NCBI GenBank assembly: GCA_050259235.1
Contig: JBLNAG010000001.1
Span: 86,640 to 150,639 of the forward strand
Reading direction: 5' to 3'
DNA length: 64,000 nt
DNA from: Ignavibacteriales bacterium
Lineage (GTDB): Bacteria > Bacillota_I > Bacilli_A > RF39 > UBA660
Shown here: positions 8,061-46,181 of the stretch, one piece after another
Layout: each line of letters begins with the position of its first letter
How positions within the stretch are numbered: the stretch's first letter is position 1
Made by a program: the position numbers and the translations under genes
The notes under the pieces: generated by a model
What the model was told of the DNA's origin: nothing
Seen by the model: the letters and a program-made list of their open reading frames with translations, nothing else
Database searches by the model: none

Positions 8061-8122
8061 AGTAAAACCTCCGTCAATATTATACCATATTTTAACATAA
8101 AAAAAGATACTTAATTAAGTAT

Positions 8123-9331: not shown

Positions 9332-9408
9332 AAAAACCTCCTACATATCATATGTTCGGTATCCTACCTTTTTAATTGTACCACATAATAAAAAAAATTG
9401 ACATATTT

Positions 9409-24532: not shown

Positions 24533-27016
24533 TTATTTTAATAACTTATTTATTAATCTTGATATTTTCGGATGGTTTTTAAATTTGAAAGATACAATAT
24601 TTTTTAAGGTTGTACGATCATTTCTATATAAATAAATAAATTTTTTAATTTGTTTAATCGGTATAATACCCCTTTTTGTATAAGAAGTACTATCTTCCTT
24701 AACTATCTCATATAATTTCTCATTATATGTATGGATTATTTTTTGGACATCTAAATTGTCGTATTCTATTTTCATACCTTTATCTACAACAACATTATTA
24801 TTTATATACAATTTGTCATAATTTTTCTTATTATTGCCATATAGTGTTTTTGTTAGATTATTCAATTTGTCACTTATTAATTTTGATTGCTTTTCATTAA
24901 AATTGGTTTTTGATGTAAAGAAATCAGACACATCTTTAAAATTATCATCTCGTTGGTAAATTTCTTCATATAATTCAACTATTTTTTTGTTATAAATATT
25001 TACATCATAATGTTTTTCTGCTAGTTTACGAGCTAATTTTCCTCTTTTGATTCTTTCATTTTCATTTTCAATAAGTAATAATATTGCATTTGATAATGCA
25101 AGCGAATTTTTATTTTCAACTAGAACTCCGCATTCTGGAGCAAATGTAATTGAAGGTAGAGATGTATTATTAAAAACAATCACTGGTCTACCACAAGCCA
25201 TAGATTCTATTGCCATCATTCCAAAACTTTCACCAATTGATGGCATTAAAAAGAAATCACACGCCCTATATGCACTAATTAGTGTATCAGTATCAATTTC
25301 TCCTAAATCAATAATATTAAATTTGTTTTTTATTTCATTCAATAGTCCAACTTCATCACACGTAATTATCGTTATTTTTTTATTTGTTACCAATTTTTTC
25401 ATTGCTTCAAGAATATATTCAGTGCCTTTAAAATGCTTTTGTGCCCTATGAAAAATGACAATATCACTTTCATCAATATTAAATTTCTTTCTTGCAATAG
25501 CACTTGACATTTTTTCATTAAACTTATCTAGGTCGATACCAAATGGTATTAAGTGAACATTTTTAAAGTTTTTTGTTAAAGGACTAGTTTTAATTAGATT
25601 TAGCATATATTCAGAAGATACAACTATATCTACATTAATATTATCATATACTAATTTTTTTAAGTTCCATAATTGATTACAGTTATCCTCATTTAAAGGG
25701 AAAAGAGTCTTTAAATGATTACAATTTTTACAACCACTTTTCCATTTATCACATTCACCAAAATGAACACATCTACCAGTTATGGTCCAAGGATCGTGAA
25801 TACTAAAAACTGATTTCTTTTTATTGCATAATTCAATTAAAGAATATAAAGATAATTTTGTATTATGTATCAAATGATAATGAGCAATATCACTATTATT
25901 AAATAAAAAATTTCTCTTTAATGCAGGAGAAGTTAATGACAAATTGGAATGTACGGACATTTTGTCTGATTCGAATGTTGAAATGTACTGTTCATATTGT
26001 TTTTCATAATTATTCAAAAGAATTTTGACATTATCATCATTCGAAATCTTGTCTGTTACTAATTGTATACATTTGTGTTTTGTATTATTATTTATATATT
26101 TTTGGATATCATATCCATTAAAACGACGACCAAGAATATCAATATTATTAATCTCTAATATTTTTATTACGTTATTATTTTTATATATTTCATTCAATTT
26201 ATTTTGGCAATGAGTTAAAGCTTCAAAATATGGTGTTGAACTTAAAAATTCAATCATAGTTTCATAATATTTATCAATACCCATGCATAATTCGATTTTT
26301 TGTTGATCTGAAAAATTCTCAACTAATTTTATCCAAAATGTGTTTCCCTCACTAGCAACTTTCGGATTTATATTGGTTTGTTGATTCTTATGTAAACGTG
26401 TAGTTGCTAGAACATCTTCCATATGAATAAATGGATATTTTTTGATCATTTCTAGCCATTTTTCATAATCTTGAGTACATCTTAAATTTTCATCAAATAA
26501 GCCACAAGTATCAAATGCAATTTTAGGTATTAGAAGTGTGATACCATTAATACACCCATTTAGTAAACAAAATTCTGGATGTTCAAGTAATAACTTATGA
26601 TCATGAATTACTGGTTCTGCAAATTTTCTTCCTCTAGCATTGATAAAATCATAATTTGAATATAATATTACATTTTTATTTTTTTCATTATTTAAAAATT
26701 CAATTTGTTTTTCAATTTTATTTTTGTAATAAACATCATCATGACTTAACCATGAAAAATAATCACCTGTCATATTTTTTATCGCTAGATTCAATGCAGA
26801 AGAAACACCGCCGTTTGATTTTGAAAAATATCTGATTTTTTTCCCATAAGATTGCGCAATTTTATCGGTTTTCCCAGAATCATTTGAGCCATCATTTACA
26901 ACAATTATTTCAATATTTTTATATGTTTGACTTATTGCACTATCAATGGCTTTTTTCATATATTTACTACCATTATATACAGGTATTACGATTGTTACTT
27001 TGGGATTAAATTTCAC
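24533..27016 (-). CDS. Bifunctional glycosyltransferase: N-terminal GT2 plus C-terminal GT4 with Cys-rich linker
   Basis: N-terminus VTIVIPVYNGSKYMKKAIDSAISQTYKNIEIIVVNDGSNDSG (GT2, DXD). C-terminus GESFGMMAIESMACGRPVIV (GT4 EX7E). Linker CVHFGECDKWKSGCKNCNHLK. Confidence 0.75.
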   Translation of the reverse strand: MKFNPKVTIVIPVYNGSKYMKKAIDSAISQTYKNIEIIVVNDGSNDSGKTDKIAQSYGKKIRYFSKSNGGVSSALNLAIKNMTGDYFSWLSHDDVYYKNKIEKQIEFLNNEKNKNVILYSNYDFINARGRKFAEPVIHDHKLLLEHPEFCLLNGCINGITLLIPKIAFDTCGLFDENLRCTQDYEKWLEMIKKYPFIHMEDVLATTRLHKNQQTNINPKVASEGNTFWIKLVENFSDQQKIELCMGIDKYYETMIEFLSSTPYFEALTHCQNKLNEIYKNNNVIKILEINNIDILGRRFNGYDIQKYINNNTKHKCIQLVTDKISNDDNVKILLNNYEKQYEQYISTFESDKMSVHSNLSLTSPALKRNFLFNNSDIAHYHLIHNTKLSLYSLIELCNKKKSVFSIHDPWTITGRCVHFGECDKWKSGCKNCNHLKTLFPLNEDNCNQLWNLKKLVYDNINVDIVVSSEYMLNLIKTSPLTKNFKNVHLIPFGIDLDKFNEKMSSAIARKKFNIDESDIVIFHRAQKHFKGTEYILEAMKKLVTNKKITIITCDEVGLLNEIKNKFNIIDLGEIDTDTLISAYRACDFFLMPSIGESFGMMAIESMACGRPVIVFNNTSLPSITFAPECGVLVENKNSLALSNAILLLIENENERIKRGKLARKLAEKHYDVNIYNKKIVELYEEIYQRDDNFKDVSDFFTSKTNFNEKQSKLISDKLNNLTKTLYGNNKKNYDKLYINNNVVVDKGMKIEYDNLDVQKIIHTYNEKLYEIVKEDSTSYTKRGIIPIKQIKKFIYLYRNDRTTLKNIVSFKFKNHPKISRLINKLLK

Positions 27017-27066
27017 TATAAATCACGTCTCTCTCATACATTCTTATTTACTTTTATGCCTAAAAA

Positions 27067-28188
27067 CTATTTTCTCCAAGTTCTAATATTAATAATATTG
27101 TAATAGCTTTGTATAATATTTACTACCTTATTTGAAACATTAATATCTCTATAATCTTTTACAGGATTTGCTCTATTTATATCAAAACTGTTTACTGCTA
27201 TTTCAATTGCACTAATCATATCCTTTTCATTTATTCCGCCAAGTACAATACTTCCAGCGTCTAATGCTTCTGGCCTTTCAGTACTAGTACGTAAAGAAAT
27301 AGCTGGGAAATTTAATATTGAAGACTCTTCAGGGATGGTACCACTATCTGATAATACACAGAAAGCATTTTTTTGTAATGTAATATAATCAAAGAAACCA
27401 AGAGGTTCTAAAATTTTTATTAATGGATTTAGTTTAATTCCTTTAGCCAACATTTTTTTTGATGTTCTTGGATGAGCAGAAAAAATTATTGTTTTTTTGT
27501 ATTTTTCTGCTACTGCATTTAATCCATTCATTAATTCATTGAAGTTTTTTTCAATATCAATATTTTCTTCACGATGAGCGCTAACTACAAAATAATCTTT
27601 TTCATTTAAGTTTAATTTTTTAAGAACTTCACTCTTATTTATAAAATCAATATTTTTATATATTACTTCTGCCATTGGTGAACCAGTAACATATAGAAAA
27701 TCGTTTTTTATTCCCTCATTAATTAAGTATCTTCTTGCATTTTCAGTGTATGCTAAATTAACATCTGAAATATGATCAACGACTCTACGATTGATCTCTT
27801 CAGGTACATTAAAATCGAAGCATCTATTTCCTGCTTCCATATGAAAAATAGGAACTTTATGTCTCTTTGCAGAATATGCAGATAAACAACTATTAGTATC
27901 CCCTAAAACTAGAAGAGCATCTGGTTTTTCTTTCTCAATGACATCGTATGTCTTAGAAATTATATTTCCAACTGTTTCACCTAAATTTTTACCTGGGGTA
28001 TCAAGATAATAATCTGGCTTTTTTAATTTAAACTCTTCAAAAAATATATCATTTAATGTATAGTCATAATTTTGTCCGGTATGAACTAAAACTAAATTAA
28101 AATGCTTTTCAATCTTTTTAATTACCTCTGATAAACGTATTATTTCTGGTCTAGTACCTACTACAACCATTACTTTTAATTTTTCCAT
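27067..28188 (-). CDS. fnlC: UDP-2-acetamido-2,6-dideoxy-L-talose 2-epimerase (Cap5G/FnlC-like UDP-GlcNAc 2-epimerase family)
   Basis: MEKLKVMVVVGTRPEIIRLSEVIKK...VLVHTGQNYDYTLNDIFFEEFKLKKPDYYL closely matches S. aureus Cap5G / FnlC. Confidence 0.8.
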   Translation of the reverse strand: MEKLKVMVVVGTRPEIIRLSEVIKKIEKHFNLVLVHTGQNYDYTLNDIFFEEFKLKKPDYYLDTPGKNLGETVGNIISKTYDVIEKEKPDALLVLGDTNSCLSAYSAKRHKVPIFHMEAGNRCFDFNVPEEINRRVVDHISDVNLAYTENARRYLINEGIKNDFLYVTGSPMAEVIYKNIDFINKSEVLKKLNLNEKDYFVVSAHREENIDIEKNFNELMNGLNAVAEKYKKTIIFSAHPRTSKKMLAKGIKLNPLIKILEPLGFFDYITLQKNAFCVLSDSGTIPEESSILNFPAISLRTSTERPEALDAGSIVLGGINEKDMISAIEIAVNSFDINRANPVKDYRDINVSNKVVNIIQSYYNIINIRTWRK

Positions 28189-28318
28189 TATTCTACTCCT
28201 TTACAAAAATAATAATTTTTTATATCGATTTCTGATATCTTTATAGTTAATAATCAGATATATTAAATTTTACTTTTCTATTTAATTATACATTATATTT
28301 TTTTAATTTGAAATATAT

Positions 28319-28358
28319 TTGTTCATCAAAAATACTTTTTATATTTTTTGATGAACAA
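28319..28358. repeat. Perfect 14-bp inverted repeat TTGTTCATCAAAAA...TTTTTGATGAACAA immediately downstream of the 626-aa membrane-protein gene
   Basis: Seen directly in the sequence; probably a terminator hairpin or a protein-binding site. Confidence 0.5.
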
Positions 28359-28399
28359 TCTATATTAACATTATTTTGCCAATAGTTAATCATATAATA

Positions 28400-30280
28400 T
28401 CATGGTAATATTAATTCTAATATTACTTTGTTATCTTTATTCACCTTATATAATTGATTATCTTCAATATTACTATTAAATAATTGTCCATATTGGTCTA
28501 CAAATTGTTGATCTATATCAAAAAGATATACGAAGTCATAGTTTTCTATTAATTCTTTCTTCCAACTTTCAGTTGTTTTTAACACAGTCCAAATGTCATC
28601 TTCACTATATTTTTTGCCAATACTCCATGCATAATTTACATTCATTTTCTTAGGTGTTATTTCGTAATTGGCTACGTAAAAATCAAAACCGTTGTCATTT
28701 GTGGAGATAAAATATATATTATTGTCATTTGTAACATATTTATCTACCATATTTTTGAATTGTTTATAACTATTTCTAATGTCATGAGTATTGGATATAA
28801 TTTCTCGGGCAAATATAGTTGTATTTAAAAGGGCAATAAAATTTGCAAAACATAATAAAAATGTAAAAAAGATAATTAATAATTTATTGAATTCTTTAAT
28901 TTTATCTCTATATTTATTAATAAGTAAAGCAATAATTATAATAAACATTCCAAGAGTATAAGTACTTATATATCTTTGAAACGATGCTAAATTAACAGCT
29001 TCGTATTCACAAAATATAGTCAAATAAGTTAATAGCAGTAAAAATGAATATCCAATTGCCCCAAGTAAAATAAACAAGCCAGATAATATATAACTGTTTT
29101 TAAAGATACTTTTTTTCATATTGTTTGTTAAAATATAAAAAATAATTATAAATATCCCGACTGATGTAAAAAAAGTAATTGGCATCATTGAAGAATCAGT
29201 TAATGGAGTATAGAATAAGGCTTTAATGTAATCATATACAACATCTCTTCTATATCCAATTAGGTTACCAGATAGTATCGTTTTTATACTGTCAAGCATA
29301 CTATCATTTTGAAGTGGTAAATTGACATTTTTAACAATCAATGTCCCAATCCACATAAGTTTTACTGCTATTAATGGGATCAATGAAAATATCAAATACT
29401 TACTGTTTCTCCATATATATTTTAAATTGAATTTGAATTTATTACGAATAAAAATATTATCAATAAAAATAATTACGAAGGTAAGAAATGCAAATACCAT
29501 ACCTATTTCTTTAATCATAATTAAAAACAAAAGCGATGCTGATAGATTAATAATATTAAATTTATTTAATCCGTCGTTGTAATTTAAATAATAACTATAA
29601 ATTGAATATGCAAAAGTTGTACCTAAAATAGCATCAACATATAAACTGTTGTACAGGTCTGGATAAAACAAAGTTGGTACAATCATAATCATTATAAATG
29701 CTAGATGTATTGATAAGTTTTTAATATTTTTAAAATTCTTAAACATAGGTAGTATTAATGATAAAAAGGTTAAATTCATTCCAAAATATAGCATACCTTC
29801 GTTAAAAGTACCACTCAATTTAACAGCAAAATATTGAAATAGAGATGTTCCAGATAAATAACTCTTTGCAATCACATTCCCATCTAGGCCAATTCCAAAG
29901 TTATTAAGTAGATACATATTTTTTACAACTAGCGCCCAATGAGAAAATTCATCCCATATAATAGATAAACGATTATGATTTGTCCATATAAATAGTAATG
30001 ACCCAAGCATTAATAAACAAAATCCAACCGTCAAAACTTTTTCCTTAATAATAGTTTTATTTTTATAGATTGATTTAATGTTGAATATTAATAAAGGTAT
30101 ACCTAGTATCAATATAAAATAATAACCAACTAATAAATTAAAAAAAACGCCAGATAGAAATAATATAAATATTTTAACTATAATTGATAAAAAAATAGTC
30201 TCTTCTACTCTCTTATCAAAATGAATAGCAAAAGCTATCGCTGTATTTAGAACTATCAATAATAATAAAACATAATCCAT
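28400..30280 (-). CDS. Large polytopic membrane protein, putative polysaccharide polymerase/GT-C-like; paralog of 37894..39807
   Basis: 626 aa, about 14 TM helices. Shares blocks with the 637-aa protein: VGYYFILILG vs IGYYLILLLS, WDEFSHWAL vs FDELRMWAL, SGTSLFQYFAVK vs PGMSLFQYFFAK. Confidence 0.45.
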   Translation of the reverse strand: MDYVLLLLIVLNTAIAFAIHFDKRVEETIFLSIIVKIFILFLSGVFFNLLVGYYFILILGIPLLIFNIKSIYKNKTIIKEKVLTVGFCLLMLGSLLFIWTNHNRLSIIWDEFSHWALVVKNMYLLNNFGIGLDGNVIAKSYLSGTSLFQYFAVKLSGTFNEGMLYFGMNLTFLSLILPMFKNFKNIKNLSIHLAFIMIMIVPTLFYPDLYNSLYVDAILGTTFAYSIYSYYLNYNDGLNKFNIINLSASLLFLIMIKEIGMVFAFLTFVIIFIDNIFIRNKFKFNLKYIWRNSKYLIFSLIPLIAVKLMWIGTLIVKNVNLPLQNDSMLDSIKTILSGNLIGYRRDVVYDYIKALFYTPLTDSSMMPITFFTSVGIFIIIFYILTNNMKKSIFKNSYILSGLFILLGAIGYSFLLLLTYLTIFCEYEAVNLASFQRYISTYTLGMFIIIIALLINKYRDKIKEFNKLLIIFFTFLLCFANFIALLNTTIFAREIISNTHDIRNSYKQFKNMVDKYVTNDNNIYFISTNDNGFDFYVANYEITPKKMNVNYAWSIGKKYSEDDIWTVLKTTESWKKELIENYDFVYLFDIDQQFVDQYGQLFNSNIEDNQLYKVNKDNKVILELILP

Positions 30281-30379
30281 GTCAAATACCTCCTAGATAT
30301 TAATAAACCTTTTAATTTTAATGAATATCTATATTAAAATGTAGATATATATACCAATTGATAATAGTTTACTAATATA

Positions 30380-31588
30380 CTACTTTTTTTCACTTTTCTT
30401 AATTAAATTATACATTATATTCTCTAAATTTGAAATATGAATATCTTTCTCAAAATGTTTTTTATAATAAATTAATGAATTGTTTGACCATTGCTGTATC
30501 ATATTTTTATCATTAAACATCTTTAATATTATTTTTGATAATGATACATAATCAAGTGATTCACAACATAGGCCACATTTTGATTCCTCAATAACATTTT
30601 TTACTTCCCCACTAATTGCACCAACAATTGGCTTCCCAGCGGCCATATACGATTGAAGTTTTGCCGGTAAAGTACTATTTACTACGTCGTTGTTAACCAT
30701 TGTGATAATGAATGCATCAGCTAAATCATAATATTTTTTCATTTCTTCAATATCATGAAAACCATAGAATTTAATGTTACTTAAATTATATTTTTTTGCC
30801 ATGCTTTCACAATTTTTTTTATTTAATCCATCACCAACAATATGAAATAATATTTTTGATTTATCTTTTAATATGTTTGCCGCCTCAATAATTGTTTCAA
30901 CACTTTGGGCGGGACCGATATTACCAGCAAAAACAATATCAAAGTAATCATTTTTGATGTGTTCAGTTTTCTCATAATTACTTTCAGCATATGAAGGACA
31001 ATATATTAATCCTTTTTCATTACTGTTAATCTGCAAAACATTCTCAAAATAGTTTTTGAAAGATTTAGAACTAATTGTAATTAAATCAGCAGCATTATAA
31101 GTTTTTCTACTCCATCGAAGTAAAATCTTATATACAATACTTTTTCTGCTTATTCCACCCGTTGTTATACTTTCTGGCCATTGATCAAGGCAATGTATAA
31201 TCAAAGGAATTTTTCCAAAATTTTTAACTACTATCGCTGGCCACACCATTGTGATAGGCGATAATTGATAGACATATACAATATCAAACCTTTTATGCAT
31301 TAATAATGCTTTTATTGATGCACTTATAGCAAACGACATATAATTAATTGCCATTTTAATAATTGACTGTCCTCTGCCAATCAAAAATGTTCTTATAATT
31401 TTTACTCCATTTATAGTCTGTTTTCTATTCTTAAAAAACCTATATTCATTAGAAACTTTACCCGTAGGATAATTGGGCAGCCCAGTCAACACTGTAACAC
31501 TATGTCCCCTTTTTACAAGCTCATAACATATATCATTTATTCTAAATTGTTCGGGATAAAAATGCTGACATACTACTAGTATCTTCAT
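30380..31588 (-). CDS. GT4 glycosyltransferase, WbuB/WcaI-like (candidate L-FucNAc transferase)
   Basis: MKILVVCQHFYPEQFRINDICYELVKRGHSVTVLTGLPNYPTG is typical of the WbuB/WcaI GT4 subfamily. Confidence 0.7.
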   Translation of the reverse strand: MKILVVCQHFYPEQFRINDICYELVKRGHSVTVLTGLPNYPTGKVSNEYRFFKNRKQTINGVKIIRTFLIGRGQSIIKMAINYMSFAISASIKALLMHKRFDIVYVYQLSPITMVWPAIVVKNFGKIPLIIHCLDQWPESITTGGISRKSIVYKILLRWSRKTYNAADLITISSKSFKNYFENVLQINSNEKGLIYCPSYAESNYEKTEHIKNDYFDIVFAGNIGPAQSVETIIEAANILKDKSKILFHIVGDGLNKKNCESMAKKYNLSNIKFYGFHDIEEMKKYYDLADAFIITMVNNDVVNSTLPAKLQSYMAAGKPIVGAISGEVKNVIEESKCGLCCESLDYVSLSKIILKMFNDKNMIQQWSNNSLIYYKKHFEKDIHISNLENIMYNLIKKSEKK

Positions 31589-31594
31589 AATTTC

Positions 31595-32116
31595 TTACTC
31601 CTTACTACATTGCTGTATATATTTTGCTGCATCTAATAAATCATTTGCAAAAATATACTTATCATTTTTAGACCCAATTATTATTCCCTCAATAGATGTA
31701 TATTCACAAATAGATAAATCTCGTTCTCTATCACCTATTACATAAGATTTATTTAAATCAGGATTATATTCTTCAATTGCTTTTTTATATAGTCCAATTT
31801 TAGGTTTCCTACAATCACAATTGTCTTCCTCAGTATGTGGGCAAAAATAAACATTTGTAATTTTAATTCCAGCCTCAAGTAGCTTATCAATAAAATATTT
31901 ATTAAACTTATTATATTCATCTATAGTATACATTTTTCTTCCAATTCCCGATTGATTTGTTACTACAATTAACATATAACCCATCTTAGTCATTAGCTTT
32001 AGACCTTCAATTGCATTTTTCATAAAAACTAAGTCTGTTAACTTATGAACATAACCATAATCTACATTAATTGTTCCATCTCTATCTAAAAAAATAACTT
32101 TATTCATTTTTTCCAT
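31595..32116 (-). CDS. gmhB: D-glycero-D-manno-heptose 1,7-bisphosphate 7-phosphatase GmhB (HAD, histidinol-phosphatase-like)
   Basis: VIFLDRDGTIN (HAD motif I), TNQSGIGR, CDCRKPK and GDRERD motifs. Confidence 0.8.
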   Translation of the reverse strand: MEKMNKVIFLDRDGTINVDYGYVHKLTDLVFMKNAIEGLKLMTKMGYMLIVVTNQSGIGRKMYTIDEYNKFNKYFIDKLLEAGIKITNVYFCPHTEEDNCDCRKPKIGLYKKAIEEYNPDLNKSYVIGDRERDLSICEYTSIEGIIIGSKNDKYIFANDLLDAAKYIQQCSKE

Positions 32117-33557
32117 AAACCTTTAATATTTTATCAATTATTTTTGTTGTGGACTTTCCGTCTCTAAGGGAAATAAATTCTATTCTCCCTCCATAACTCT
32201 CAATAACTTCTTTTTCTGGAACATATTTATTTTTCCAATCATCACCCTTTATAGAAATATCGGGTTTTAAATAATTTATTAAATTTACTGGTGTTTTGTC
32301 CTCCATTAGTATCACATAATCAACACACTCTAATTCACTAATCATTTCAACACGATCCTCTTGATTGATTATCGGCCTTAGATCACCTTTATTTTCTCTT
32401 ACTGAATCATCAGAATTTATAGCAACAATCAATATATCTCCAAAACTTTTTGCCTTTTTAAAAGATGATATGTGACCAACATGTAATAAATCAAAACAAC
32501 CGTTGGTAAATACAATTTTTTTACCTTTTTCTTTCAAATCATCAATAATGTATTTAGCAGTTTCATTAGATATCAATTTAAAATCTCCAGTATTATAAAT
32601 ACTACTTAACAATTCATTTAAACTAACTGTACTTGCGCCAAATTTTGATATTACGACAGATGCAGCTGAATTTGCTACTTGACATATTTCTCCAATTTCA
32701 AAAGCAAGTGGTAATAGTATTGCAAATATTGAAACAACTGTATCACCAGCACCAGTTACATCAATAACATCTTTAGCAAATGTAGGAAAATCAATTTTAC
32801 TATGTTTTGAATAATCAAATAAAGAAATTCCTTTTTCTGATCTTGTTAATGCAAGATACTTTAAATGAGTATCTTCACAAAGTTTTAATCCAGCATCAAA
32901 AATTGAATCTTCAGAATCAAATTTATTATTTGAAACAATTCCTAATTCTTTAACATTAGGGGTAAGAATTGTAGCATGATTATATTTGCTATAGTCCTTT
33001 CCTTTTGGATCAACAATTATAGGGATATTGTTTTCATTAGCATGTTTAATCATAATTTGAGCAATATCTTTACTTACTGCTCCTTTTCCGTAGTCAGATA
33101 TAACAAATGAATCTATTCCATCAAATATTTCTTTCAAATTTGATAAAATAAATTTTTTATATTCTTCAGGCATCTCCATAATTATTTCTTCATCTAAACG
33201 AAGAAATTGTTGATTTTTAGACACAATTCTTGTTTTTATAATAGTCTTAGCATTCTTACACTTTTTTAGAAATTGTGTGTCAACTCCTGCTTCATATAAA
33301 TTATTTATAAAGAAGGTTCCATCTTCATCTTCTCCAACACAACCTATTGGTCTTACCTTTGCTCCAAGTGTAATTATGTTATTTATAACATTTCCTGCAC
33401 CACCTAATCGTGACATTTTGCTATTTACTTCAACAACTGGTACAGGTGCCTCTGGTGAAATACGGCTAACATTTCCATCAATGTATTTATCAACCATATA
33501 ATCACCAAAAACTAAAATTGTTTCTTCTTTTATTTTACTTAACATTTCAACTTTCAT
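32100..33557 (-). CDS. hldE: Bifunctional D-beta-D-heptose 7-phosphate kinase / D-beta-D-heptose 1-phosphate adenylyltransferase HldE (RfaE)
   Basis: N-terminal pfkB/ribokinase-like domain (DVTGAGDT). C-terminal cytidylyltransferase-like domain FTNGCFDLLHVGHISSFKKAK (HxGH). Confidence 0.9.
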   Translation of the reverse strand: MKVEMLSKIKEETILVFGDYMVDKYIDGNVSRISPEAPVPVVEVNSKMSRLGGAGNVINNIITLGAKVRPIGCVGEDEDGTFFINNLYEAGVDTQFLKKCKNAKTIIKTRIVSKNQQFLRLDEEIIMEMPEEYKKFILSNLKEIFDGIDSFVISDYGKGAVSKDIAQIMIKHANENNIPIIVDPKGKDYSKYNHATILTPNVKELGIVSNNKFDSEDSIFDAGLKLCEDTHLKYLALTRSEKGISLFDYSKHSKIDFPTFAKDVIDVTGAGDTVVSIFAILLPLAFEIGEICQVANSAASVVISKFGASTVSLNELLSSIYNTGDFKLISNETAKYIIDDLKEKGKKIVFTNGCFDLLHVGHISSFKKAKSFGDILIVAINSDDSVRENKGDLRPIINQEDRVEMISELECVDYVILMEDKTPVNLINYLKPDISIKGDDWKNKYVPEKEVIESYGGRIEFISLRDGKSTTKIIDKILKVYGKNE

Positions 33558-33559
33558 AA

Positions 33560-34843
33560 TTATCTCCTATCTTGGTCATCTATCATTTTTTTTACTATAC
33601 ACCAAGCATCTTCAATTGATATTTCATTTAAACATGGCCATATTTTATTTTGCTTTTTTAATTTAATACAATTATTATCACAATTAAAACAATCCATTTT
33701 GTGAACAATAATATAAGGTTTTAAATAATTATCCATATTCTTAAATTTATATGAAACATACCTATCATATGTATAACCACCTGTAATTATTGCCGTTGGA
33801 ACTTGATTTATAACTCCAATATGATAAGTACTTGTATCATTTGTAACTATAAATTCTGCTTTTGTTATAACATATATGAACTCTAATAATGATGTTTTTC
33901 CGACTATATCAATATATGGTATATCATCAATCTTTTGCTTTAATTCATTAATACTATCTAGATCACTGTTTGTCCCACAAAATAATAATGGAATTTTACA
34001 TGATTTATATATCCTCTTTATTAACTCAGCATAGTTTTCAATGGGCCATCTCTTCAATTGTGTACTAGCACTAGGAAATACAATAAAATATTTTTTTGGT
34101 AATTCAATTTTAGGTTTTACTGTTTCAATTTTATGTAACTCAAGATTATAGTCTTTTAGTCCTAATCCTCTTAAAAGTTCAGCATAATATTCCAATAATG
34201 ATATATGTTTATCTTTTATTTGTATTATTTGGTTATATATTATATTTGAAATCCAATAAGGACATATAACTGGCATATTAATTTTATCAATTATTGTAAT
34301 TTTATTTTGAGCACATATTGCTCTGCTCATAAATATATTTGTCGTGCATTCATTAGCTCCAATTGGATCAATAACAATATCATAGTATTTATTACGAAGC
34401 AATTTAAATAACCCAAATCTTTTCTTTAAATTAAAAGTTGATTCGGTTAAATTATATGGAATAATTTCATCAAAAAGTTTAGAATTTTCATATATTGAAT
34501 TTAAACCCTTTTGGCAAATTAAGGTAATATTATAATGATTTTTTGGATATAATTTTCGAATACCATTTATCGCAGTTAGCCAGATCATTCCATCACCAAA
34601 AGCATAATTATACATAATAATTATTTGTTTTTTTTGACTATTTTGAATTTTTGGTTTTCTAATAAACATTAATAAAATTGCATCTGTAAAAAACAGTATT
34701 ATTTTAAGTTTTCTTAAAAATGGCATTTTTTGGCATAAAACATATAGTTTTAATGAAAAATTTGAGTAGTAACTTTCTTTTTTCATATAATTATATTCAT
34801 GCCATTTCTTTTTCGACAAGTTCACATATTGTATGAATTGCAA
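33560..34843 (-). CDS. GT9 family glycosyltransferase (ADP-heptose-dependent heptosyltransferase-like) with N-terminal hydrophobic extension
   Basis: GT9-like core ([27 protein letters not shown]...[11 protein letters not shown]...[17 protein letters not shown]) preceded by ~90 extra aa including a TM-like segment. Confidence 0.7.
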
Positions 34844-35366
34844 TAATATGTGCTTCTTGAACTCTTGCAGTAATTTTAAATGGTATAATTAGAGAAATAT
34901 CACACATTGATGCTAATTTACCACCGTCTTTTCCAAGAAAACCAATAGTAATCATCTTTTGTTTTTTAGCTTCTTCAACAGCCTCAATTACATTATTGGA
35001 ATTGCCACTTGTTGAAATTCCAATAAATATATCCCCTTCATTACCTAAAGCTTCTACTTGCCTACTGAATACTTTGTCGTAGCCATAATCATTTCCTATA
35101 CAAGTAAGTACAGATGTATCAGTACTTAGTGAAATAGCAGGCATTCCTTTTCTTTCAAGTAGAAATCTTCCAACAATTTCACCAGCAAAATGTTGTGCAT
35201 CAGAAGCGCTACCACCATTACCAGCAATTAATATTTTCTTGCCATCTTTTAAAGCCTTAATTTGAGTAGCAACAATTTTTTCAATTGTGCTAATATATTC
35301 TCCCTCTCTAAGTAATGATATATTACATATGTGTTCTTCAAGTATTTCACTAATTCGTTCTTTCAT
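34797..35366 (-). CDS. gmhA: Phosphoheptose isomerase GmhA (SIS domain)
   Basis: [25 protein letters not shown] and [13 protein letters not shown] motifs; overlaps the downstream GT9 gene by 47 nt. Confidence 0.85.
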
Positions 35367-35396
35367 TTTTTTCCTCCTTCTTCCGATAATATAATA

Positions 35397-36821
35397 TTAT
35401 TTGCTCTTTCCATTTAATACTTGGTTAAATATAAACAATATGTTTCTTCTATTTAATATATATATTATAATTATTGCAATAATAAATATTAGATATCTTA
35501 TTATAAAATTATTAATAAAATATAAATTAGCAAAACATAGAAAAAATAATGCTAATGAATAAAATAATATTATCTTAGAATCAAAAATCTTCTTTTTACC
35601 AATTTTTTTCATACCATAATAGTTAAATACTGTTAATAATATATAGCTTATTAACGTTGTGTATGCTGCAGCTGTATATCCATAATTTTTTATAAAAATA
35701 TAATTCAATATAATATTAATAATCGCTGTAAGTATTGAATAATAAGCAATTATTTTGCCTTGTTCATAATAATATTCTACATCATAAAATATTACATACA
35801 ATCCTTGAAAATACATTCCTAAACTTATTGGTACAATTATATTAACAGCAGAAAAATAAGTTGAATTTAGAAAAGTCTTTATCATTTCTGGAGCAACTGT
35901 AATTAAACCTAGAGTTATTATAAAAAATAAAATTATTATATTTGATGAATTTTTATATATTGGTTCTATTTCATCATTATCAAGTCTTCTATATACCCAT
36001 GGTGACCATGGTTTTAAAATACATATAATAAGACTATAAACTATATTACTTATAGTATACGCAACACTATATATACCTGCAGACTCTGCCCCAACCATGC
36101 TTTTAATCATTAATAAATCACTATTTGATAATAATACTTGTGATAACAAATGAGCAACAAATGGTGTACTGATTTGTAATCCATATTTTAAATATTTTTT
36201 ATCAAAACTAAATTTCCCTTTTATCAAAATATATATTAGAAATAATATACCAATGACAATTGGTAATGCTTTTAATCCAATTATTTTACCCCAGTATTTA
36301 TCTGTGTGACAAAAAAGTACTAAAAATATTGATAATATTTGTGATAATGGTGAAGTTATAAAATTATAAATAAAAACTTTTATATATTCATTTTTAAAAG
36401 TCCATTTTGTAAAAAAGTAAAGAACTATATTATCAAACAATATCGATAAAAACAAAAAGGTCATCAGTAATGTATTAAAACCAAATAGACTATTAAATGA
36501 TCCTTTAAATATATAATATAATATATAATAACCAATAATAGATATTATTGTAAATATTGTAATCGTAGAAAAATAATTGTCGAGTTCTATTTTTTTATTT
36601 AACATTACTTTATTTATCGATGTATAAATTGATAAAGTAATAATATAGGAAATAACAGTTTGAAGTGTAATAAATGAGGTTGATATACCCATATCGGAAG
36701 GTGTTAATAAATTAGATAAAATCGATAAAGATACTAAACTCACTATCATAGATATTCCAACCGAAATAATATTCACGATGCTGGCTTTAATTGTTTTTTT
36801 GCCATCATTTTCTCTTGACAT
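35397..36821 (-). CDS. wzx: Wzx-like oligosaccharide flippase (polysaccharide biosynthesis protein, MOP superfamily)
   Basis: 474 aa, about 12-14 TM helices; located inside the glycan locus. Confidence 0.65.
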   Translation of the reverse strand: MSRENDGKKTIKASIVNIISVGISMIVSLVSLSILSNLLTPSDMGISTSFITLQTVISYIITLSIYTSINKVMLNKKIELDNYFSTITIFTIISIIGYYILYYIFKGSFNSLFGFNTLLMTFLFLSILFDNIVLYFFTKWTFKNEYIKVFIYNFITSPLSQILSIFLVLFCHTDKYWGKIIGLKALPIVIGILFLIYILIKGKFSFDKKYLKYGLQISTPFVAHLLSQVLLSNSDLLMIKSMVGAESAGIYSVAYTISNIVYSLIICILKPWSPWVYRRLDNDEIEPIYKNSSNIIILFFIITLGLITVAPEMIKTFLNSTYFSAVNIIVPISLGMYFQGLYVIFYDVEYYYEQGKIIAYYSILTAIINIILNYIFIKNYGYTAAAYTTLISYILLTVFNYYGMKKIGKKKIFDSKIILFYSLALFFLCFANLYFINNFIIRYLIFIIAIIIIYILNRRNILFIFNQVLNGKSK

Positions 36822-37161
36822 TTTTATCTTTGATTCCCTTCAATATACTTACCTCTTGAATCAATAATTTTAATTGCTCTTTTTGTTTTGAAACAATTAT
36901 AGTCAATGAAATTGTGATAACAAATAAAAAAGCAATAATTAATATAAATAATAAATTTGAGGCAACTTGTATTTTGAATATATTTGTTAACCAAACAAGT
37001 ATTGGTGGAAAAATAACAAAAAGTAATAACACAAAAGTACAGGAATACCATACTAATGAATATTTAATAGTAATTTTATCTTTTCTTACAAATAATGTTA
37101 TTATTAGAATAATTGCTAAGAGAAATAACAGTGCTGCTAATTTTAAATTTTCCGATATCAT
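36805..37161 (-). CDS. DUF2304-like small membrane protein (GtrA-like partner of the adjacent GT2)
   Basis: 118 aa, 3 TM helices, charged C-terminal coil; immediately downstream of a GT2 DPM1-like gene, the common GT2+DUF2304 pairing. Confidence 0.5.
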   Translation of the reverse strand: MISENLKLAALLFLLAIILIITLFVRKDKITIKYSLVWYSCTFVLLLFVIFPPILVWLTNIFKIQVASNLLFILIIAFLFVITISLTIIVSKQKEQLKLLIQEVSILKGIKDKNVKRK

Positions 37162-37877
37162 TATTTATACCTCCTTATACTTGTAATTAGTATAGACAGA
37201 AGCACATTGATCATATAATATATATTTTTCCATGCACGAATCGAAGATTGACCTTCTTTTCTACTATGCATAACGACAGGAACCTCTAATATATTATATT
37301 TCATTTTTAATAACATAACTTCTGAAATAGGTTCTGGATATTCTGATGGATATTCATTAATAAATTCTCGCATAATATTTTTATCTATTGCTCGAAAACC
37401 CGATGTTGGATCATATACTTTATTTTTTGTAAATAATTTGATAAATAACGAAATTATCTTAATTCCTACTCTTCTTGCTTTTGAAGATTTAAATCCTTTA
37501 GTTTTTGGTAAGATAAATCTTGACCCAATACACATATTACATTCATTATTTATAATGGGTTCTATTATATTTTTTACATAATTAATATCATGTTGACCAT
37601 CACCATCAAATTGAACGGCAATGTCATAATCATGAGTTGCTGCATACTTATATCCTGTTTGAACAGCTCCACCAATGCCCAAATTGGTTATTAAATCAAT
37701 ATGAGGAATATTATTCACATCTAAAATTTCACCAGTTTTATCAAAGGAACCATCATTAATAAATATACAATCATAAGTTTCTTGATTTTTGCTGTTATAT
37801 TCACATATTTTATTCCATAAATTAAGAACATTTTTTTCTTCGTTATACGAAGGTATTATTAATAATATTTTTTTCAT
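37161..37877 (-). CDS. GT2 polyprenyl-phosphate glycosyltransferase (DPM1-like)
   Basis: LLIIPSYNEEKNV...FINDGSFD...QFDGDGQHD (DXD) motifs; 238 aa, soluble GT-A domain. Confidence 0.8.
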   Translation of the reverse strand: MKKILLIIPSYNEEKNVLNLWNKICEYNSKNQETYDCIFINDGSFDKTGEILDVNNIPHIDLITNLGIGGAVQTGYKYAATHDYDIAVQFDGDGQHDINYVKNIIEPIINNECNMCIGSRFILPKTKGFKSSKARRVGIKIISLFIKLFTKNKVYDPTSGFRAIDKNIMREFINEYPSEYPEPISEVMLLKMKYNILEVPVVMHSRKEGQSSIRAWKNIYYMINVLLSILITSIRRYK

Positions 37878-37893
37878 ATTACTTCCCCTATAC

Positions 37894-39807
37894 TTAATAG
37901 CTAGATATTTTCTTCATTAATAGTTTTCCATCACCAGTAATAGTTTTTTTAAACATATCACCAGCTTGTGGTTTGTTACCAAATAATTCTTTACTCTCTT
38001 CATCTAAATTTTCTATATCTTCAACAACAAAAACATAATCAAATTTCGTCAAAAGTGTATTAATGTTATCATTATTGGTTTTAATATAATATAAAGGTGG
38101 AGTTGTTACGTCACTAGCGAGATACATCCCAGAAGTTAATGGATAAATGCCATTGTCCACAAGAGATAAAAATAAATGATGTTGGTAGAGAACACAACTA
38201 TACGTTGTAGAATCACAATAATTATATATTGTGAGAACATTTACACCTTCATTTTTTTCCCCTATAATAGAAATCATTTTATTCGCATATTCATTTGTTT
38301 TTGTCTCAATTTCTTGCTCATAAACAAATTTACTAATTTTTGGAAGGTTATAACTATATAATATAATAAAAAATAGAATGAGGCCATAATATAATGGAAT
38401 TTTTTTAATTTTTGAAGACATATCATAGACAAATAATAATGTGAACGTTGATATTCCAGTTATAACAGCGCCAATATATCTTTCATAGCACAAAATTGTA
38501 TTATTAAATGTAAATACATATATATATAAATATAATAGTAAGAATATTATTATAGAAAAAATTCCAAAGATGAAGCTACTAATAATAATTTTTCTTTTTT
38601 CTTTAACAACTGCAAAAAATAATACCAACATCACTAGAAAGTAAAATATACATATATTTGGTAGTGTAGCTAAATTAGTATATTTTAAATCACCAATAAT
38701 AAAACTACTACTTTTTATATATGAAATGTATGATGTTAAAAATTCCCTTTGATCTGCATTTGGATTTAAAAATAGATTTAATGAATCTCTTATTTTATTT
38801 GAAGAAACAATTGAAGAAGATGCATCAATATCCAAATTCAATTTTACGATAAGTTGCCAACTTAAAAAGGTAAAAATAACTACGAAAATTGGAGTCACAA
38901 TTTTAATATAATCTATAACATTTTTCTTTTGGAATTTAAAATTATAATTTTTATATATAAATATTTGATTTATTAAAAATGATAATACAACACAACCAGC
39001 TAATGCAATACCAACCACTTTCATTAATATAATCATTGATAATGACAAACAAAATAAAATGTAAGTAAATTTATCTTTTTTTAGGTCTCGGGTGGATAAA
39101 AATAAAGAATAACCAAATGATATCCCTAAAATAGGATCAATATACAATGATCTGTAATAGTATTGTAAGTCAAGACCAGTATTAGCAAAGGTCATTGGAA
39201 AAGTAAATAATAAGATTACTATTGGAAATATTATTAAAAATTTTTTCCATTTTATTTTTTTTGTTATTGGAAGTAAAAACGATAAACCAACTAATGAATA
39301 ACTTAAAAACAAATTACTCTCGGTAAAATTTCCGATATTTTTTGCAAAAAAATATTGAAATAGTGACATACCAGGATAATAGTCAGTAGAAAAAAACAAA
39401 TCATTACCTATCATTAGTTTATTAGTTATAAAAATACTCTTTGGATATAAAGCCCACATTCTAAGTTCATCAAATGTCATTGCAAAATTAGTTTTTGTTA
39501 CCATATATATTATAAAAAATAATACAATGAAAATAAATAAGCCTGGTGTAAAAAATAAGTTTATAGAGCTTTTTCTAATATTTTTATCTTTTATAAACTT
39601 TTTTATAGAAATGAATAATATTATAAAAGATAGTAGTAAAATTAAATAATATCCAATTATAACTATATTTAGCATGTAAAAAACAAATAATATAAATATT
39701 ACACTCATAACTGTAAATGGAATCATTTCTTCAAATCGTTTATTAAGATATATACTCCCATATATACTCCCAATTGATAATAATACTATATTGAAAATTA
39801 GACCCAC
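37894..39807 (-). CDS. Large polytopic membrane protein, paralog of 28400..30280 (putative GT-C glycosyltransferase/polymerase)
   Basis: 637 aa, many TM helices; paralogy blocks as listed for 28400..30280. Confidence 0.45.
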   Translation of the reverse strand: MGLIFNIVLLSIGSIYGSIYLNKRFEEMIPFTVMSVIFILFVFYMLNIVIIGYYLILLLSFIILFISIKKFIKDKNIRKSSINLFFTPGLFIFIVLFFIIYMVTKTNFAMTFDELRMWALYPKSIFITNKLMIGNDLFFSTDYYPGMSLFQYFFAKNIGNFTESNLFLSYSLVGLSFLLPITKKIKWKKFLIIFPIVILLFTFPMTFANTGLDLQYYYRSLYIDPILGISFGYSLFLSTRDLKKDKFTYILFCLSLSMIILMKVVGIALAGCVVLSFLINQIFIYKNYNFKFQKKNVIDYIKIVTPIFVVIFTFLSWQLIVKLNLDIDASSSIVSSNKIRDSLNLFLNPNADQREFLTSYISYIKSSSFIIGDLKYTNLATLPNICIFYFLVMLVLFFAVVKEKRKIIISSFIFGIFSIIIFLLLYLYIYVFTFNNTILCYERYIGAVITGISTFTLLFVYDMSSKIKKIPLYYGLILFFIILYSYNLPKISKFVYEQEIETKTNEYANKMISIIGEKNEGVNVLTIYNYCDSTTYSCVLYQHHLFLSLVDNGIYPLTSGMYLASDVTTPPLYYIKTNNDNINTLLTKFDYVFVVEDIENLDEESKELFGNKPQAGDMFKKTITGDGKLLMKKISSY

Positions 39808-40919
39808 TACTTAATCTCCAAATAAAATGTGTCGGGATTTTCAGGATCAAATAATTCATTACACCAAATTAGCAAAATCATCTCACCATCACCAATGTTT
39901 TCAATATTATGAGTATATCCTACTGGAATTGTAACAATTTCAATATTATTTTCATCAACAACAAATTCGACCTTTTCTCCAGTAACAACATGTTCAAATT
40001 TTATTTTTGCTATTCCCTTGATAACGATAAATCTTTCTACTTTAGTATTATGATAATGATTTCCACGAATTACATTTGGTTTAGATATTGATACGGAAAA
40101 TTGCCCACAATTTAATGTTCTATTTATTTCAGTGAAACTACCCCTATCATCTACATTTTTCTTAGTTAAAATATGCATTTGATCTATAGGAACATAGCTA
40201 ATGTACGTAGAATATAATTTTTTAATAAATTCATTCCCTGTTTCGGGGGTATATATTGATCTCATTGAATCCCTAAATGAATATATCAATTTTGAAAGAT
40301 TTCCAAGTGTAATCTTTTTTACTGGTTTAATATAATTAATTTGCTTTTTTATTCTAATATTAGTTTTATTATTGTCAGTTACCAAAGATATAAGTTCTTT
40401 ACATATATCATCTATATATATCAACTGAATTTCAGTTTTTTTATCATTTATTTGAATTGGCAGATCATTTGCAATATTATAACAAAAAGTAGCCACTACA
40501 GAGTTATAATTTGGTCTGCACCATTTTCCAAAAACATTATGAAATCTATAAATAATACCATATTTATAATTGTTAATAATATAGTCTTCAGCTTGTTTTT
40601 TGCTTTTACCATAATCATTATCTAATTCAGCTTGAATGCTTGATGAATAAATCAAAGGTATTTTTTTATTTTTTTCATTTAAAAGATTAATAATATCTTT
40701 GGTTAAATTAGTATTTCCTTCATAAAATTCTGATACATCTTTTGGCCTATTTATCCCAGCAAAATGAAATATAAAATCGATAGTATCAATATTTTCTTTT
40801 ATTTTTGAAAATTCATCTTCCACGTTAAATTCAATCACTTCAACATCTTTAGTTTCTCGTAAGAAAACCAGCATATTTCTACCAATAAATCCTTTTGAAC
40901 CAGTTAATAATACTTTCAT
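39807..40919 (-). CDS. fnlB: CapF/FnlB-like bifunctional UDP-sugar reductase/epimerase (N-terminal SDR plus C-terminal cupin)
   Basis: MKVLLTGSKGFIGRN Rossmann motif, then FGKWCRPNYNSVVATFCY, VDDRGSFTE, IPVGYTHNIEN, FDPENPDTFYLE. Collinear with S. aureus CapF (369 aa). Confidence 0.85.
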   Translation of the reverse strand: MKVLLTGSKGFIGRNMLVFLRETKDVEVIEFNVEDEFSKIKENIDTIDFIFHFAGINRPKDVSEFYEGNTNLTKDIINLLNEKNKKIPLIYSSSIQAELDNDYGKSKKQAEDYIINNYKYGIIYRFHNVFGKWCRPNYNSVVATFCYNIANDLPIQINDKKTEIQLIYIDDICKELISLVTDNNKTNIRIKKQINYIKPVKKITLGNLSKLIYSFRDSMRSIYTPETGNEFIKKLYSTYISYVPIDQMHILTKKNVDDRGSFTEINRTLNCGQFSVSISKPNVIRGNHYHNTKVERFIVIKGIAKIKFEHVVTGEKVEFVVDENNIEIVTIPVGYTHNIENIGDGEMILLIWCNELFDPENPDTFYLEIK

Positions 40920-40932
40920 AATAACCTCCTAA

Positions 40933-41928: not shown

Positions 41929-41957
41929 AAACTTTCTCCTTTTCTTATTATAAATAT

Positions 41958-43025: not shown

Positions 43026-43101
43026 GATTATTACCTTCTTCCATAATGTACTTTAACATTTTAATTTGATTCATATAGATAAAAACTTATAAAATTGAAT
43101 A

Positions 43102-44385: not shown

Positions 44386-44414
44386 TTTCCACCTCCTACT
44401 TAATAAAGAAAATA

Positions 44415-45161: not shown

Positions 45162-45166
45162 CTTCT

Positions 45167-45976: not shown

Positions 45977-46181
45977 CCTCCATATATATAAGCATTTGTT
46001 TACCTAGTTAATTATAACATATATTTTCGACTTTTTTCAATTATTTTTGCTTTTTATAACTGGTTTTCTATTTAAAAATATCAATATTAATATAATTATT
46101 TGTTACTTAATCTTTACATTATCCAAATACTTACAGTTCACTTTTAAGTTAAAATAAGATATAATTAATTAAGGTGATAGT

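Follow-up and report, generated by a model that had tools for sequence, protein, structure and literature searches.

The stretch of DNA considered here, 64,000 nucleotides (nt) of contig JBLNAG010000001.1 (called the window throughout, at its full length), carries a cassette of four tightly packed open reading frames (ORFs) on the minus strand, namely gmhA, a GT9-family glycosyltransferase gene, hldE and gmhB (window 31595-35366). It is very probable that these genes encode a nucleotide-heptose pathway together with a GT9 heptosyltransferase, and it is likely that they belong to a glycopolymer locus of a monoderm envelope. In the reading favoured here, which is given a probability of roughly 0.6, a side chain of D,D-heptose would be assembled on N-acetylhexosamine (HexNAc) linked to undecaprenyl monophosphate, flipped, and attached by GT-C-like proteins to a wall polysaccharide exported by an ATP-binding cassette (ABC) transporter. 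The undecaprenyl-monophosphate-primed side-chain route, taken as a claim of its own, is put at slightly less than an even chance. A lipid-linked wall polysaccharide is considered more likely than a glycan of an S-layer or pilin, which the original prediction had also named.

The window ORFs were scanned with profiles from Pfam and with NCBIfam models at their equivalog cut-offs; 56 of the 57 ORFs of at least 100 amino acids (aa) were covered, and a small ORF at 12749-13222 and shadow ORFs within larger genes lay outside the scan. The product of gmhA (34797-35366, minus strand; 189 aa), a predicted sedoheptulose-7-phosphate isomerase with a PF13580 (SIS_2) match, passes the equivalog TIGR00441 with 217.4 bits against a cut-off of 209.45. 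Its closest entry in the Protein Data Bank (PDB) is Burkholderia GmhA 2xbl, aligned end to end over 173 residues with an E-value (E) of 1e-57. The hldE gene (32100-33557, minus strand; 485 aa) encodes a PfkB domain and a cytidylyltransferase-like domain, and is assigned as a bifunctional heptose-7-phosphate kinase and heptose-1-phosphate nucleotidyltransferase. Both halves pass their equivalogs, the kinase domain TIGR02198 with 349.8 bits (cut-off 345) and the adenylyltransferase domain TIGR02199 with 187.3 bits (cut-off 181.5), and their closest PDB entries are HldA 4e84 (E 3e-52) and HldC 5x9q (E 1e-32), respectively. The next sugar-kinase model for the kinase domain, ribokinase, reaches 83.6 bits and other PfkB models score no higher; the possibility that this domain belongs with non-heptose sugar kinases, raised along with the original prediction, is therefore not borne out.

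The last gene, gmhB (31595-32116, minus strand; 173 aa), overlaps hldE by 17 nt and encodes a putative heptose-1,7-bisphosphate 7-phosphatase of the HAD-IIIA type. Its top match is NF006506 with 168.3 bits against a cut-off of 178, and TIGR00213 gives 145.7 against 149.6, a shortfall of 4-10 bits with its own models; the HAD-IIIA and histidinol-phosphatase-domain models are passed. The model for the beta-anomer enzyme scores above that for the alpha-anomer enzyme (128.6 bits). The closest PDB entry is E. coli GmhB 3l8e (E 9e-29), and the motifs DRDGT (DxDxT) and CPH…CDC (Cys/His) are found in the alignment. The pathway assignment thus rests on equivalogs that are passed or nearly passed and on closest solved structures that are GmhA, HldA, HldC and GmhB. 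The enzyme chemistry is that of the established adenosine diphosphate (ADP)-heptose pathway of Kneidinger and Valvano, and each pathway enzyme is an ordinary representative of a known family. It had been predicted from the sequence that gmhA, hldE and gmhB lie here with an adjoining GT9 gene; profiles and PDB matches agree with this, with GmhA, HldE and the GT9 protein clearing their cut-offs and GmhB lying just under its own, though GmhB is still the top match.

The GT9 heptosyltransferase gene (33560-34786, minus strand) lies between gmhA and hldE and encodes a protein of 408 aa, which matches PF01075 with 73.3 bits (cut-off 22). The longest ORF at this place (33560-34843) has 427 aa and begins at a TTG codon at 34843; residue numbers used below follow this ORF. 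Nearly all of the 120 homologues listed have ~400-420 aa, 13 aligned homologues begin at or near the position of M20 (MKKESYY), and it can be read from the sequence that the TGA stop of gmhA is followed, after 10 nt, by an ATG at 34786. Hence, the TTG start was rejected and the ATG at 34786 was taken as the real start. The overlap of 47 nt between gmhA and the GT9 gene, as claimed earlier, is an artefact of the longest ORF, the two genes being in fact separated by the 10-nt gap.

A structural model of the GT9 protein was built with AlphaFold2 (AF2) on 14 homologues, with a predicted local distance difference test score (pLDDT) of 86 and a predicted template modelling score (pTM) of 0.83, the first 27 residues being spurious and of low confidence. 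When the model was compared with known structures by Foldseek, the top ranks were taken by Veillonella parvula 3tov, E. coli WaaF 1psw and WaaC 6dfe/2h1h (E 1e-16 to 1e-12), with target template modelling (TM) scores of 0.73-0.75. In alignments made with HMMER, D84 corresponds to D13 of WaaC, S260/T261 to T187/T188, K264 to K192, D294 to E222, D336-T337 to D261-T262 and H341 to H266. The roles of the donor-binding residues of WaaC are those reported by Grizot et al. 2006. All these GT9 positions are invariant or nearly so among 14 diverse homologues, and G83, W266 and C385/C388/C392/C404 are likewise invariant. A catalytic-base Asp and phosphate-binding Thr and Lys have been described for TibC and WaaC (PMC4358343). 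The ADP-heptose-binding residues, whose loss had been envisaged as a sign against the assignment, are retained in the window protein, which has the catalytic Asp and the residues aligned with the donor-binding positions of WaaC.

The likeness to WaaC, WaaF and 3tov thus includes the Pfam family, the GT-B fold, the catalytic Asp in a GD motif, the Ser/Thr, the Lys, the Asp-Thr-x-x-x-His element and the presumed donor, ADP-heptose. However, the window protein is only 15-17% identical to these enzymes and differs from them by ~50 extra N-terminal aa and a C-terminal Cys4 insertion. The N-terminal extension ahead of the GT-B core is helical and conserved, with invariant K47, D54, F60 and K63 and a single hydrophobic stretch of 15 residues, which is shorter than standard transmembrane helices and would suit a monotopic anchor. 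A membrane-associated extension of ~90 aa had been proposed at this end of the protein; its presence is confirmed, but its length is ~50 aa. The Cys4 motif, CxxCxxxC-x11-C (C385/388/392/404), precedes the last helix, within a coil region, and probably binds a metal. Of 120 close homologues, 119 have it, as do 125 of the 140 full-length members among the best 150 cluster representatives. The family profile matches at least 587 cluster representatives (50% identity) at E <=1e-30, out of 19,550 GT9-like matches, and on these counts the Cys4 GT9 enzymes are a large uncharacterised subfamily of GT9.

GT9 and ADP-heptose genes are classically genes of lipopolysaccharide (LPS), and the closest solved GT9 structure, 3tov, is from a diderm Firmicute, Veillonella. 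An LPS inner-core heptose locus of a diderm Firmicute or another Gram-negative organism was therefore considered, and is judged very improbable. The GT9 protein is not an equivalog of the LPS heptosyltransferases I, II or III, since it scores only 26-54 bits where the cut-offs are 134-185 (TIGR02195, 54.5 against 134.6; TIGR02193, 54.0 against 185.3; TIGR02201, 26.1 against 170.2). No LPS genes (lpx, kds, waaA) were seen in the 64 kb, and the window holds several signs of a monoderm envelope, namely a PASTA-repeat protein, Amidase_3 and TarA/MnaA; rubrerythrin is also present. The relatives of the locus are found in Bacilli metagenome-assembled genomes (MAGs) and Lachnospiraceae, including cultured monoderm species. 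Because of these genes, the lack of LPS genes seen and the relatives, the window is considered to fit a gut lineage of Bacilli that is monoderm and anaerobic and has a small genome, and the LPS-core reading was rejected on equivalog scores and gene context. A further difference from WaaC and WaaF follows, as the host appears to be without LPS and the acceptor then cannot be Kdo2-lipid A.

The neighbourhood of the cassette was surveyed in one genome per species, with 25 loci that encode relatives at 34-62% identity (numbered L001 onwards) and with neighbouring ORFs clustered into families. Among the hosts are uncultured Bacilli known as MAGs (from human gut, from rabbit and roe deer and, as Candidatus Onthousia, from chicken) and Lachnospiraceae, with Parablautia muri, Eubacterium sp. 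14-2 and Lachnospira multipara ATCC 19207 as cultured carriers. Nineteen of the 25 loci have the genes in the order gmhA-GT9-hldE-gmhB, and in L008 and L013 the sequence ends or differs past the GT9 gene. Since the order recurs in most of these independent loci, the four-gene arrangement is not attributed to chance. Three partners accompany the cassette, a GT2 of 231-313 aa (20 of 25 loci), a DUF2304 protein (18 of 25) and a Wzx-type flippase (21 of 25), the flippases being of one of two families and mostly encoded immediately upstream of the cassette. The locus had been put forward as one that may encode an uncharacterised heptose glycopolymer of an uncommon kind; no description of the module was found in the literature searched. 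It is not a one-off, the cassette being recurrent in gut Bacillota.

Beside the cassette of L017, at 6702-9374 of that locus, three genes encode an Acyl_transf_3 protein, a GT2-like protein of ~265 aa and a 276-aa short-chain dehydrogenase/reductase (SDR) that weakly resembles heptose 6-epimerase (43.7 bits). Such genes also occur in L015, L018, L019 and L021 and, minus the SDR, in L010-L014; together, their products might epimerise or O-acetylate the heptose.

In the window, all three partners lie directly upstream of gmhA on the minus strand. The flippase gene (35397-36821; 474 aa) matches PF13440 and PF01943, and is followed, in upstream direction, by a small membrane protein of the DUF2304 type, similar to GacJ and WpsB (36805-37161; 118 aa; PF10066, 73.4 bits). 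A GT2 similar to GacI, WpsA and PpgS (37161-37877; 238 aa; PF00535) comes next; it overlaps the DUF2304 gene by 1 nt and is predicted to be a polyprenyl-phosphate HexNAc synthase. Its top NCBIfam matches, all below cut-offs, are PpgS, AglJ, PgfS and ArnC, which are polyprenyl-phosphate sugar synthases. It was reported that GacJ of S. pyogenes is a DUF2304 member which activates the GlcNAc-P-undecaprenol synthase GacI (bioRxiv 10.1101/180810). In Lactococcus, WpsA and WpsB make GlcNAc-P-C55, which cytoplasmic glycosyltransferases extend; the product is moved by the Wzx flippase WpsG and transferred by the GT-C enzyme WpsJ onto an ABC-exported rhamnan (PMC10821137).

A polytopic membrane protein of 637 aa is encoded upstream of the GacI-like gene (37894-39807, minus strand), and a paralogue of 626 aa with 25-31% identity to it lies at 28400-30280 on the same strand. 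Neither of these ~630-aa proteins gave a Pfam or NCBIfam match, even at an E of 1, and the family has 21 homologues at E <1e-5 in 5.8 billion proteins. An Asp-Glu pair (D113-E114) is invariant in the first loop of the 37894-39807 family. The AF2 model of the 637-aa protein has a pLDDT of 80, and the top 16 Foldseek matches in the PDB are all GT-C enzymes (STT3, ArnT, AftA, DPY19, PMT, ALG3). The predicted fold points weakly to GT-C, and the two paralogues look like an undescribed GT-C-like family. Orthologues of the 28400-30280 protein are encoded downstream of the GT4 gene (see below) in L002 and L003, and elsewhere the slot of the 637-aa protein is filled by DUF2142 or DUF7657 membrane proteins.

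One relative of the GT9 protein appears as a fusion. P0150 (4095-6773 of L026) is an 892-aa Wzx::GT9 protein, the C-terminal half of which is a Cys4 GT9 and the N-terminal half of which is 46% identical over 444 aa to the window flippase (35397-36821). The genes of this locus run DUF2142 (438 aa called), GT11, GacI-like GT2, DUF2304, Wzx::GT9 and gmhA, and after gmhA follow GT9, GT9, hldE, gmhB and an acyltransferase. If real, the fusion ties GT9 physically to the flippase and so to a lipid-linked substrate. A similar membrane-domain::GT9 architecture was seen in P0198, a protein of 870 aa from a high-GC (guanine plus cytosine) organism.

These neighbours bear on a rather different proposal, that the GT9 protein is a protein O-heptosyltransferase akin to the bacterial autotransporter heptosyltransferases (BAHT) TibC and AAH, acting on a surface or S-layer protein such as the Ig-like proteins encoded at 56395-63577. 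TibC prefers ADP-D,D-heptose (PMC4358343). It is an ADP-heptose-dependent GT-B enzyme as well, of a length close to that of the window protein (~406-408 aa for the two; 406 in TibC and 408 here), with an extra N-terminal module and a C-terminal four-cysteine knuckle, and surface-protein genes are present within the same window. In TibC, residues 1-97 form an N-terminal beta-barrel, and the iron finger (Cys339/342/358/370), to which the Cys4 motif before the last helix is comparable, is needed for the dodecamer. However, neither sequence nor profile searches brought up TibC at E <=1, and its fold ranks 37th with TM scores of 0.46-0.50, against 0.73-0.75 for WaaC, WaaF and 3tov. The extension of the window protein is helical and not a beta-barrel, and the cysteine spacing differs (CxxC-x15-C-x11-C in TibC as opposed to CxxCxxxC-x11-C). 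While TibC stands in an autotransporter-substrate context, the conserved neighbours here are lipid-carrier enzymes and a flippase, pointing to lipid-carrier glycan assembly, with one relative fused to Wzx, and the surface-protein genes are 20 kb off, past unrelated genes (SMC, HtpX). Membership of a TibC-like family was rejected on sequence, fold rank and N-terminal architecture, and protein heptosylation is considered improbable.

The configuration of the heptose depends on the epimerase HldD. No HldD of the TIGR02197 type was found among the 56 scanned ORFs of the window, and the donor is then probably D,D-heptose, not the L,D-heptose of WaaC and WaaF. A true HldD is encoded inside the cassette of Parablautia muri (L023 11190-12167; TIGR02197, 402 bits against 274.6) and an HldD homologue (family f39) in L016, a Lachnospiraceae MAG; these are the only two loci with HldD in the cassette, and both have split HldA/HldC genes (L023 8458-9964). 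The Bacilli loci, like the window, have the cassette without HldD, and Lachnospira multipara ATCC 19207 and Eubacterium sp. 14-2 likewise encode a bifunctional HldE and no HldD. Comparison of the sequences therefore predicts L,D-heptose for cassettes of the L016/L023 type and D,D-heptose for those of the window type. Because the epimerase, where it is used, travels with the cassette and is absent from the cassettes of the window and the Bacilli loci, D-glycero-D-manno-heptose is supported, and ADP-D,D-heptose is the most likely product. The earlier argument from the missing HldD to D,D-heptose thus gains comparative support from L016 and L023, whereas ADP as the carrier is a default expectation. 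Heptose nucleotidyltransferases with the motif (F/L)xxGRSTT (STTR5 motif) also make the cytidine diphosphate (CDP)- and uridine diphosphate (UDP)-heptoses (PMC11573728). The corresponding C-terminal motif of the window HldE is LRDGKSTT (residues 464-471); Burkholderia HldC has Arg at the diagnostic position, and among the relatives this residue is K, I, L, C, R or N (Cys in L022 and L023).

What can be read in the sequence are the identities of the enzymes, the conservation of their catalytic residues and the synteny; from these, we infer the following acceptor, order of steps and mode of wall attachment. Nucleotide-D,D-heptose would be made in the cytoplasm by GmhA, HldE and GmhB, and the GacI/GacJ-like pair would make the primer HexNAc-P-undecaprenol. 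The inverting GT-B Cys4 GT9 would then add heptose to a lipid-linked acceptor at the cytoplasmic face of the membrane. This acceptor may be HexNAc-P-undecaprenol itself or a short extension of it made through the N-acetyl-L-fucosamine (L-FucNAc) genes and the GT4 (both described below); HexNAc-P-undecaprenol is proposed because the GacI-like GT2, DUF2304 and Wzx genes almost always precede the cassette. The heptosylated unit would be flipped by Wzx and attached by the GT-C-like proteins (37894-39807 and 28400-30280) to a backbone polysaccharide; this backbone would start from a GlcNAc-ManNAc linkage unit (made with MnaA and TarA) and leave the cell through a Wzm/Wzt ABC transporter. This scheme would mirror the 'dual-chain' scheme of Lactococcus (WpsA/B-WpsC-WpsG-WpsJ), with heptose as the cargo.

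On comparing the locus with the Wps system of Lactococcus and the GacI/J/K/L system of S. pyogenes, several elements are found to be alike, namely a soluble GT2 that overlaps its DUF2304 partner, Wzx, cytoplasmic elongating transferases, large membrane proteins of the GT-C or, here, putative GT-C type and a backbone exported by an ABC transporter of the same operon. The differences are that no rhamnose genes were seen in the window, that the elongator is a GT9 presumed to use heptose, which is not reported there, and that the GT-C-like proteins come from a family without a Pfam model.

A number of observations weigh against the proposed side-chain route. Neither TagO/WecA nor an LCP ligase was found in the window, and attachment to the wall is thus assumed. 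The Foldseek scores of the GT-C matches are weak, with E of 2e-3 to 0.3 and TM scores of 0.33-0.38 for the best ten, falling to 0.23. Four Lachnospiraceae loci (L016, L018, L022, L023) have all four cassette genes but in shuffled order, and in L016, L022 and L023 the GacI/GacJ pair is not within 10 kb, so that the coupling is not universal. The Wzx::GT9 fusion P0150 is encoded on a single metagenomic contig with a coverage of ~5.5 and may be an assembly or frameshift artefact. The absence of HldD covers the window only, and the gene could sit elsewhere in the genome; furthermore, the window HldE has Lys where promiscuous enzymes have Arg, leaving the carrier nucleotide (ADP, CDP or UDP) uncertain.

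The cassette belongs to a longer operon. The window is AT-rich, with a GC fraction of 0.23-0.29 over most of its length, and co-directional genes run on the minus strand from ~45976 to ~18800; the operon comprises ~26 kb of such genes with intergenic gaps of at most 211 nt, and no minus-strand terminator-like site was found across 27000-46500. The best match to a sigma-70-like promoter (TTGAAA-18-TATAAT with an extended -10; 46011-46040, minus strand) lies upstream of the ABC permease gene; no other site of the scan scores higher, but shuffled sequences yield at least as many sites in all, and the count is thus at chance level. All genes described in the rest of this paragraph are on the minus strand. 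The first operon genes (44415-45976) encode a Wzt/Wzm (TagH/TagG-like) glycan-export ABC transporter (PF00005, PF01061), with 204.8 bits for the galactan-export Wzt model and 180 bits for TagH, both below cut-offs. Two GT2 glycosyltransferases of 355 and 427 aa follow (41958-44385; PF00535, with TuaG- and EpsE-like NCBIfam matches). An FnlA-like UDP-GlcNAc 4,6-dehydratase/5-epimerase (40933-41928; best match TIGR04130, 583.8 bits, below cut-off) and an FnlB/WbcJ-like reductase (39807-40919; best match NF047837 WbcJ, 417 bits, below cut-off) are encoded next. On the other side of the cassette are a WcaI-family GT4 of 402 aa (30380-31588; NF007640, 139 bits, below cut-off), which is a candidate L-FucNAc transferase, and an FnlC/CapG-like UDP-HexNAc 2-epimerase of 373 aa (27067-28188; TIGR00236, 274 bits against 210). 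The FnlC-like gene is syntenic with those for FnlA and FnlB in L002-L005, and a GT4 gene directly after gmhB is also present in L001-L005, loci which likewise have FnlA, FnlB and FnlC genes. Judged by their profile matches, the three Fnl-like enzymes make UDP-2-acetamido-2,6-dideoxy-L-hexose, probably L-FucNAc.

The distal part of the same co-directional block encodes a GT2-GT4 fusion (24533-27016), two TuaH-like GT4 proteins (21971-24467), a TarA-like ManNAc transferase (21258-21971; TIGR00696, 160.8 bits against 69; NF041710 TarA, 180 bits, below cut-off) and MnaA/WecB (20150-21244; WecB TIGR00236, 534 bits), again on the minus strand. Among the scanned ORFs of the window, there were no polyol-phosphate genes (TagD/TagF/TarIJL-type), no TagO and no LCP ligase. 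The context had been described as similar to that of wall teichoic acid, with mnaA, a TarA-like and a TagGH-like gene. These genes are present, but the locus is not a classical teichoic-acid locus, and by its gene content it appears teichoic-acid-like only in the linkage-unit and export genes.

The operon lends some support to another lipid-linked route, a Wzx/Wzy heteropolysaccharide of the capsule or exopolysaccharide (EPS) type, in which GT9 would heptosylate a repeat unit on undecaprenyl diphosphate that is flipped and polymerised outside, and GacI/GacJ would serve a separate monosaccharide decoration. The flippase adjoins the cassette, repeat-unit loci typically have L-FucNAc genes and several extra GT2 and GT4 genes, as are present here, and a Wzy-like polymerase could be among the two unclassified polytopic proteins. 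This route is nevertheless held to be unlikely: in the window, no initiating phosphoglycosyl transferase of the WbaP/WecA type was seen, the two polytopic proteins are similar to GT-C enzymes and not to Wzy, no neighbours are conserved with the cassette more consistently than GacI/GacJ and the flippase, and an ABC exporter heads the operon.

Several other genes of the window were noted. A second three-component glycosylation set, separate from the cassette, lies at 4900-8060 (minus strand) and comprises a GtrA-like protein (PF04138), a DUF6020 membrane protein of 617 aa and a polyprenyl-phosphate GT2 similar to AglJ and CsbB (TIGR04182, 231 bits). Divergent from the glycopolymer operon, a protein of 598 aa with five PASTA repeats is encoded at 46182-47978 (plus strand), in which no kinase or transpeptidase domain was detected. 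Three tandem paralogues of 676-856 aa with Bact_surface_Ig-like domains are encoded at 56395-63577 (minus strand), where the local GC is 0.32 compared with ~0.25, and a smaller protein with SH3_3 and Ig-like domains at 50995-51873 (minus strand); these Ig-like proteins are without an NCBIfam match and are probably surface proteins. A 402-aa protein without an NCBIfam match (8123-9331, minus strand) has a partial Thy1 (ThyX) domain at residues 38-186 only.

ADP-heptose is usually regarded as a Gram-negative signature. Heptose is known from other surface glycans, and guanosine diphosphate (GDP)-D-alpha-D-heptose serves the S-layer glycan of Aneurinibacillus thermoaerophilus and the capsules of Campylobacter; both kinds of glycan depend on HddA/HddC (the GDP-alpha route) and not on HldE. 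The antigenic polysaccharides of Eubacterium (Lachnoanaerobaculum) saburreum are heptose-rich, with galacto- and altro-heptoses, and offer a closer likeness, as they are heptose-containing wall antigens in Lachnospiraceae, the family of several cassette carriers. Studies on these antigenic polysaccharides are cited in PMC11407970, and no genes linked to the polymers were found in the literature searched. Streptomyces use ADP-heptose for septacidin and hygromycin B, and a review lists these antibiotic pathways as the Gram-positive exception for ADP-heptose (PMC10221265); there, in difference to the route proposed here, the heptose feeds secondary metabolites. In 2024, it was commented that enzymes for nucleotide-diphosphate heptoses are reported across all kingdoms, that little is known about what heptose does physiologically beyond LPS, capsules, protein heptosylation and natural products, and that the conserved neighbours of heptose enzymes should be examined (PMC11573728). 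A description of the Cys4 GT9 subfamily, of its coupling with GacI/GacJ and Wzx, or of its spread in gut Bacilli and Lachnospiraceae was not found in the literature searched.

The locus can thus be seen as a portable cassette of monoderm gut bacteria, in which heptose synthesis is joined to a distinct GT9 subfamily and to GacI/GacJ-Wzx priming. If this is confirmed, heptose would join the known chemistry of Gram-positive wall polysaccharides, and a function would be given to a large GT9 clade and to a polytopic family without a Pfam model. It would also raise the question whether abundant Gram-positive commensals feed the ALPK1-TIFA pathway. A broader proposal is put forward only tentatively and is doubtful at present: Cys4 GT9 enzymes may be a widespread route for heptosylating undecaprenyl-monophosphate primers, and commensals may display D,D-heptose on their walls and be an overlooked source of ALPK1 agonists through cytosolic ADP-(CDP-/UDP-)heptose. 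If true, both Lachnospiraceae and the uncultured small-genome Bacilli would, as monoderm gut commensals, have D,D-heptose on their walls.

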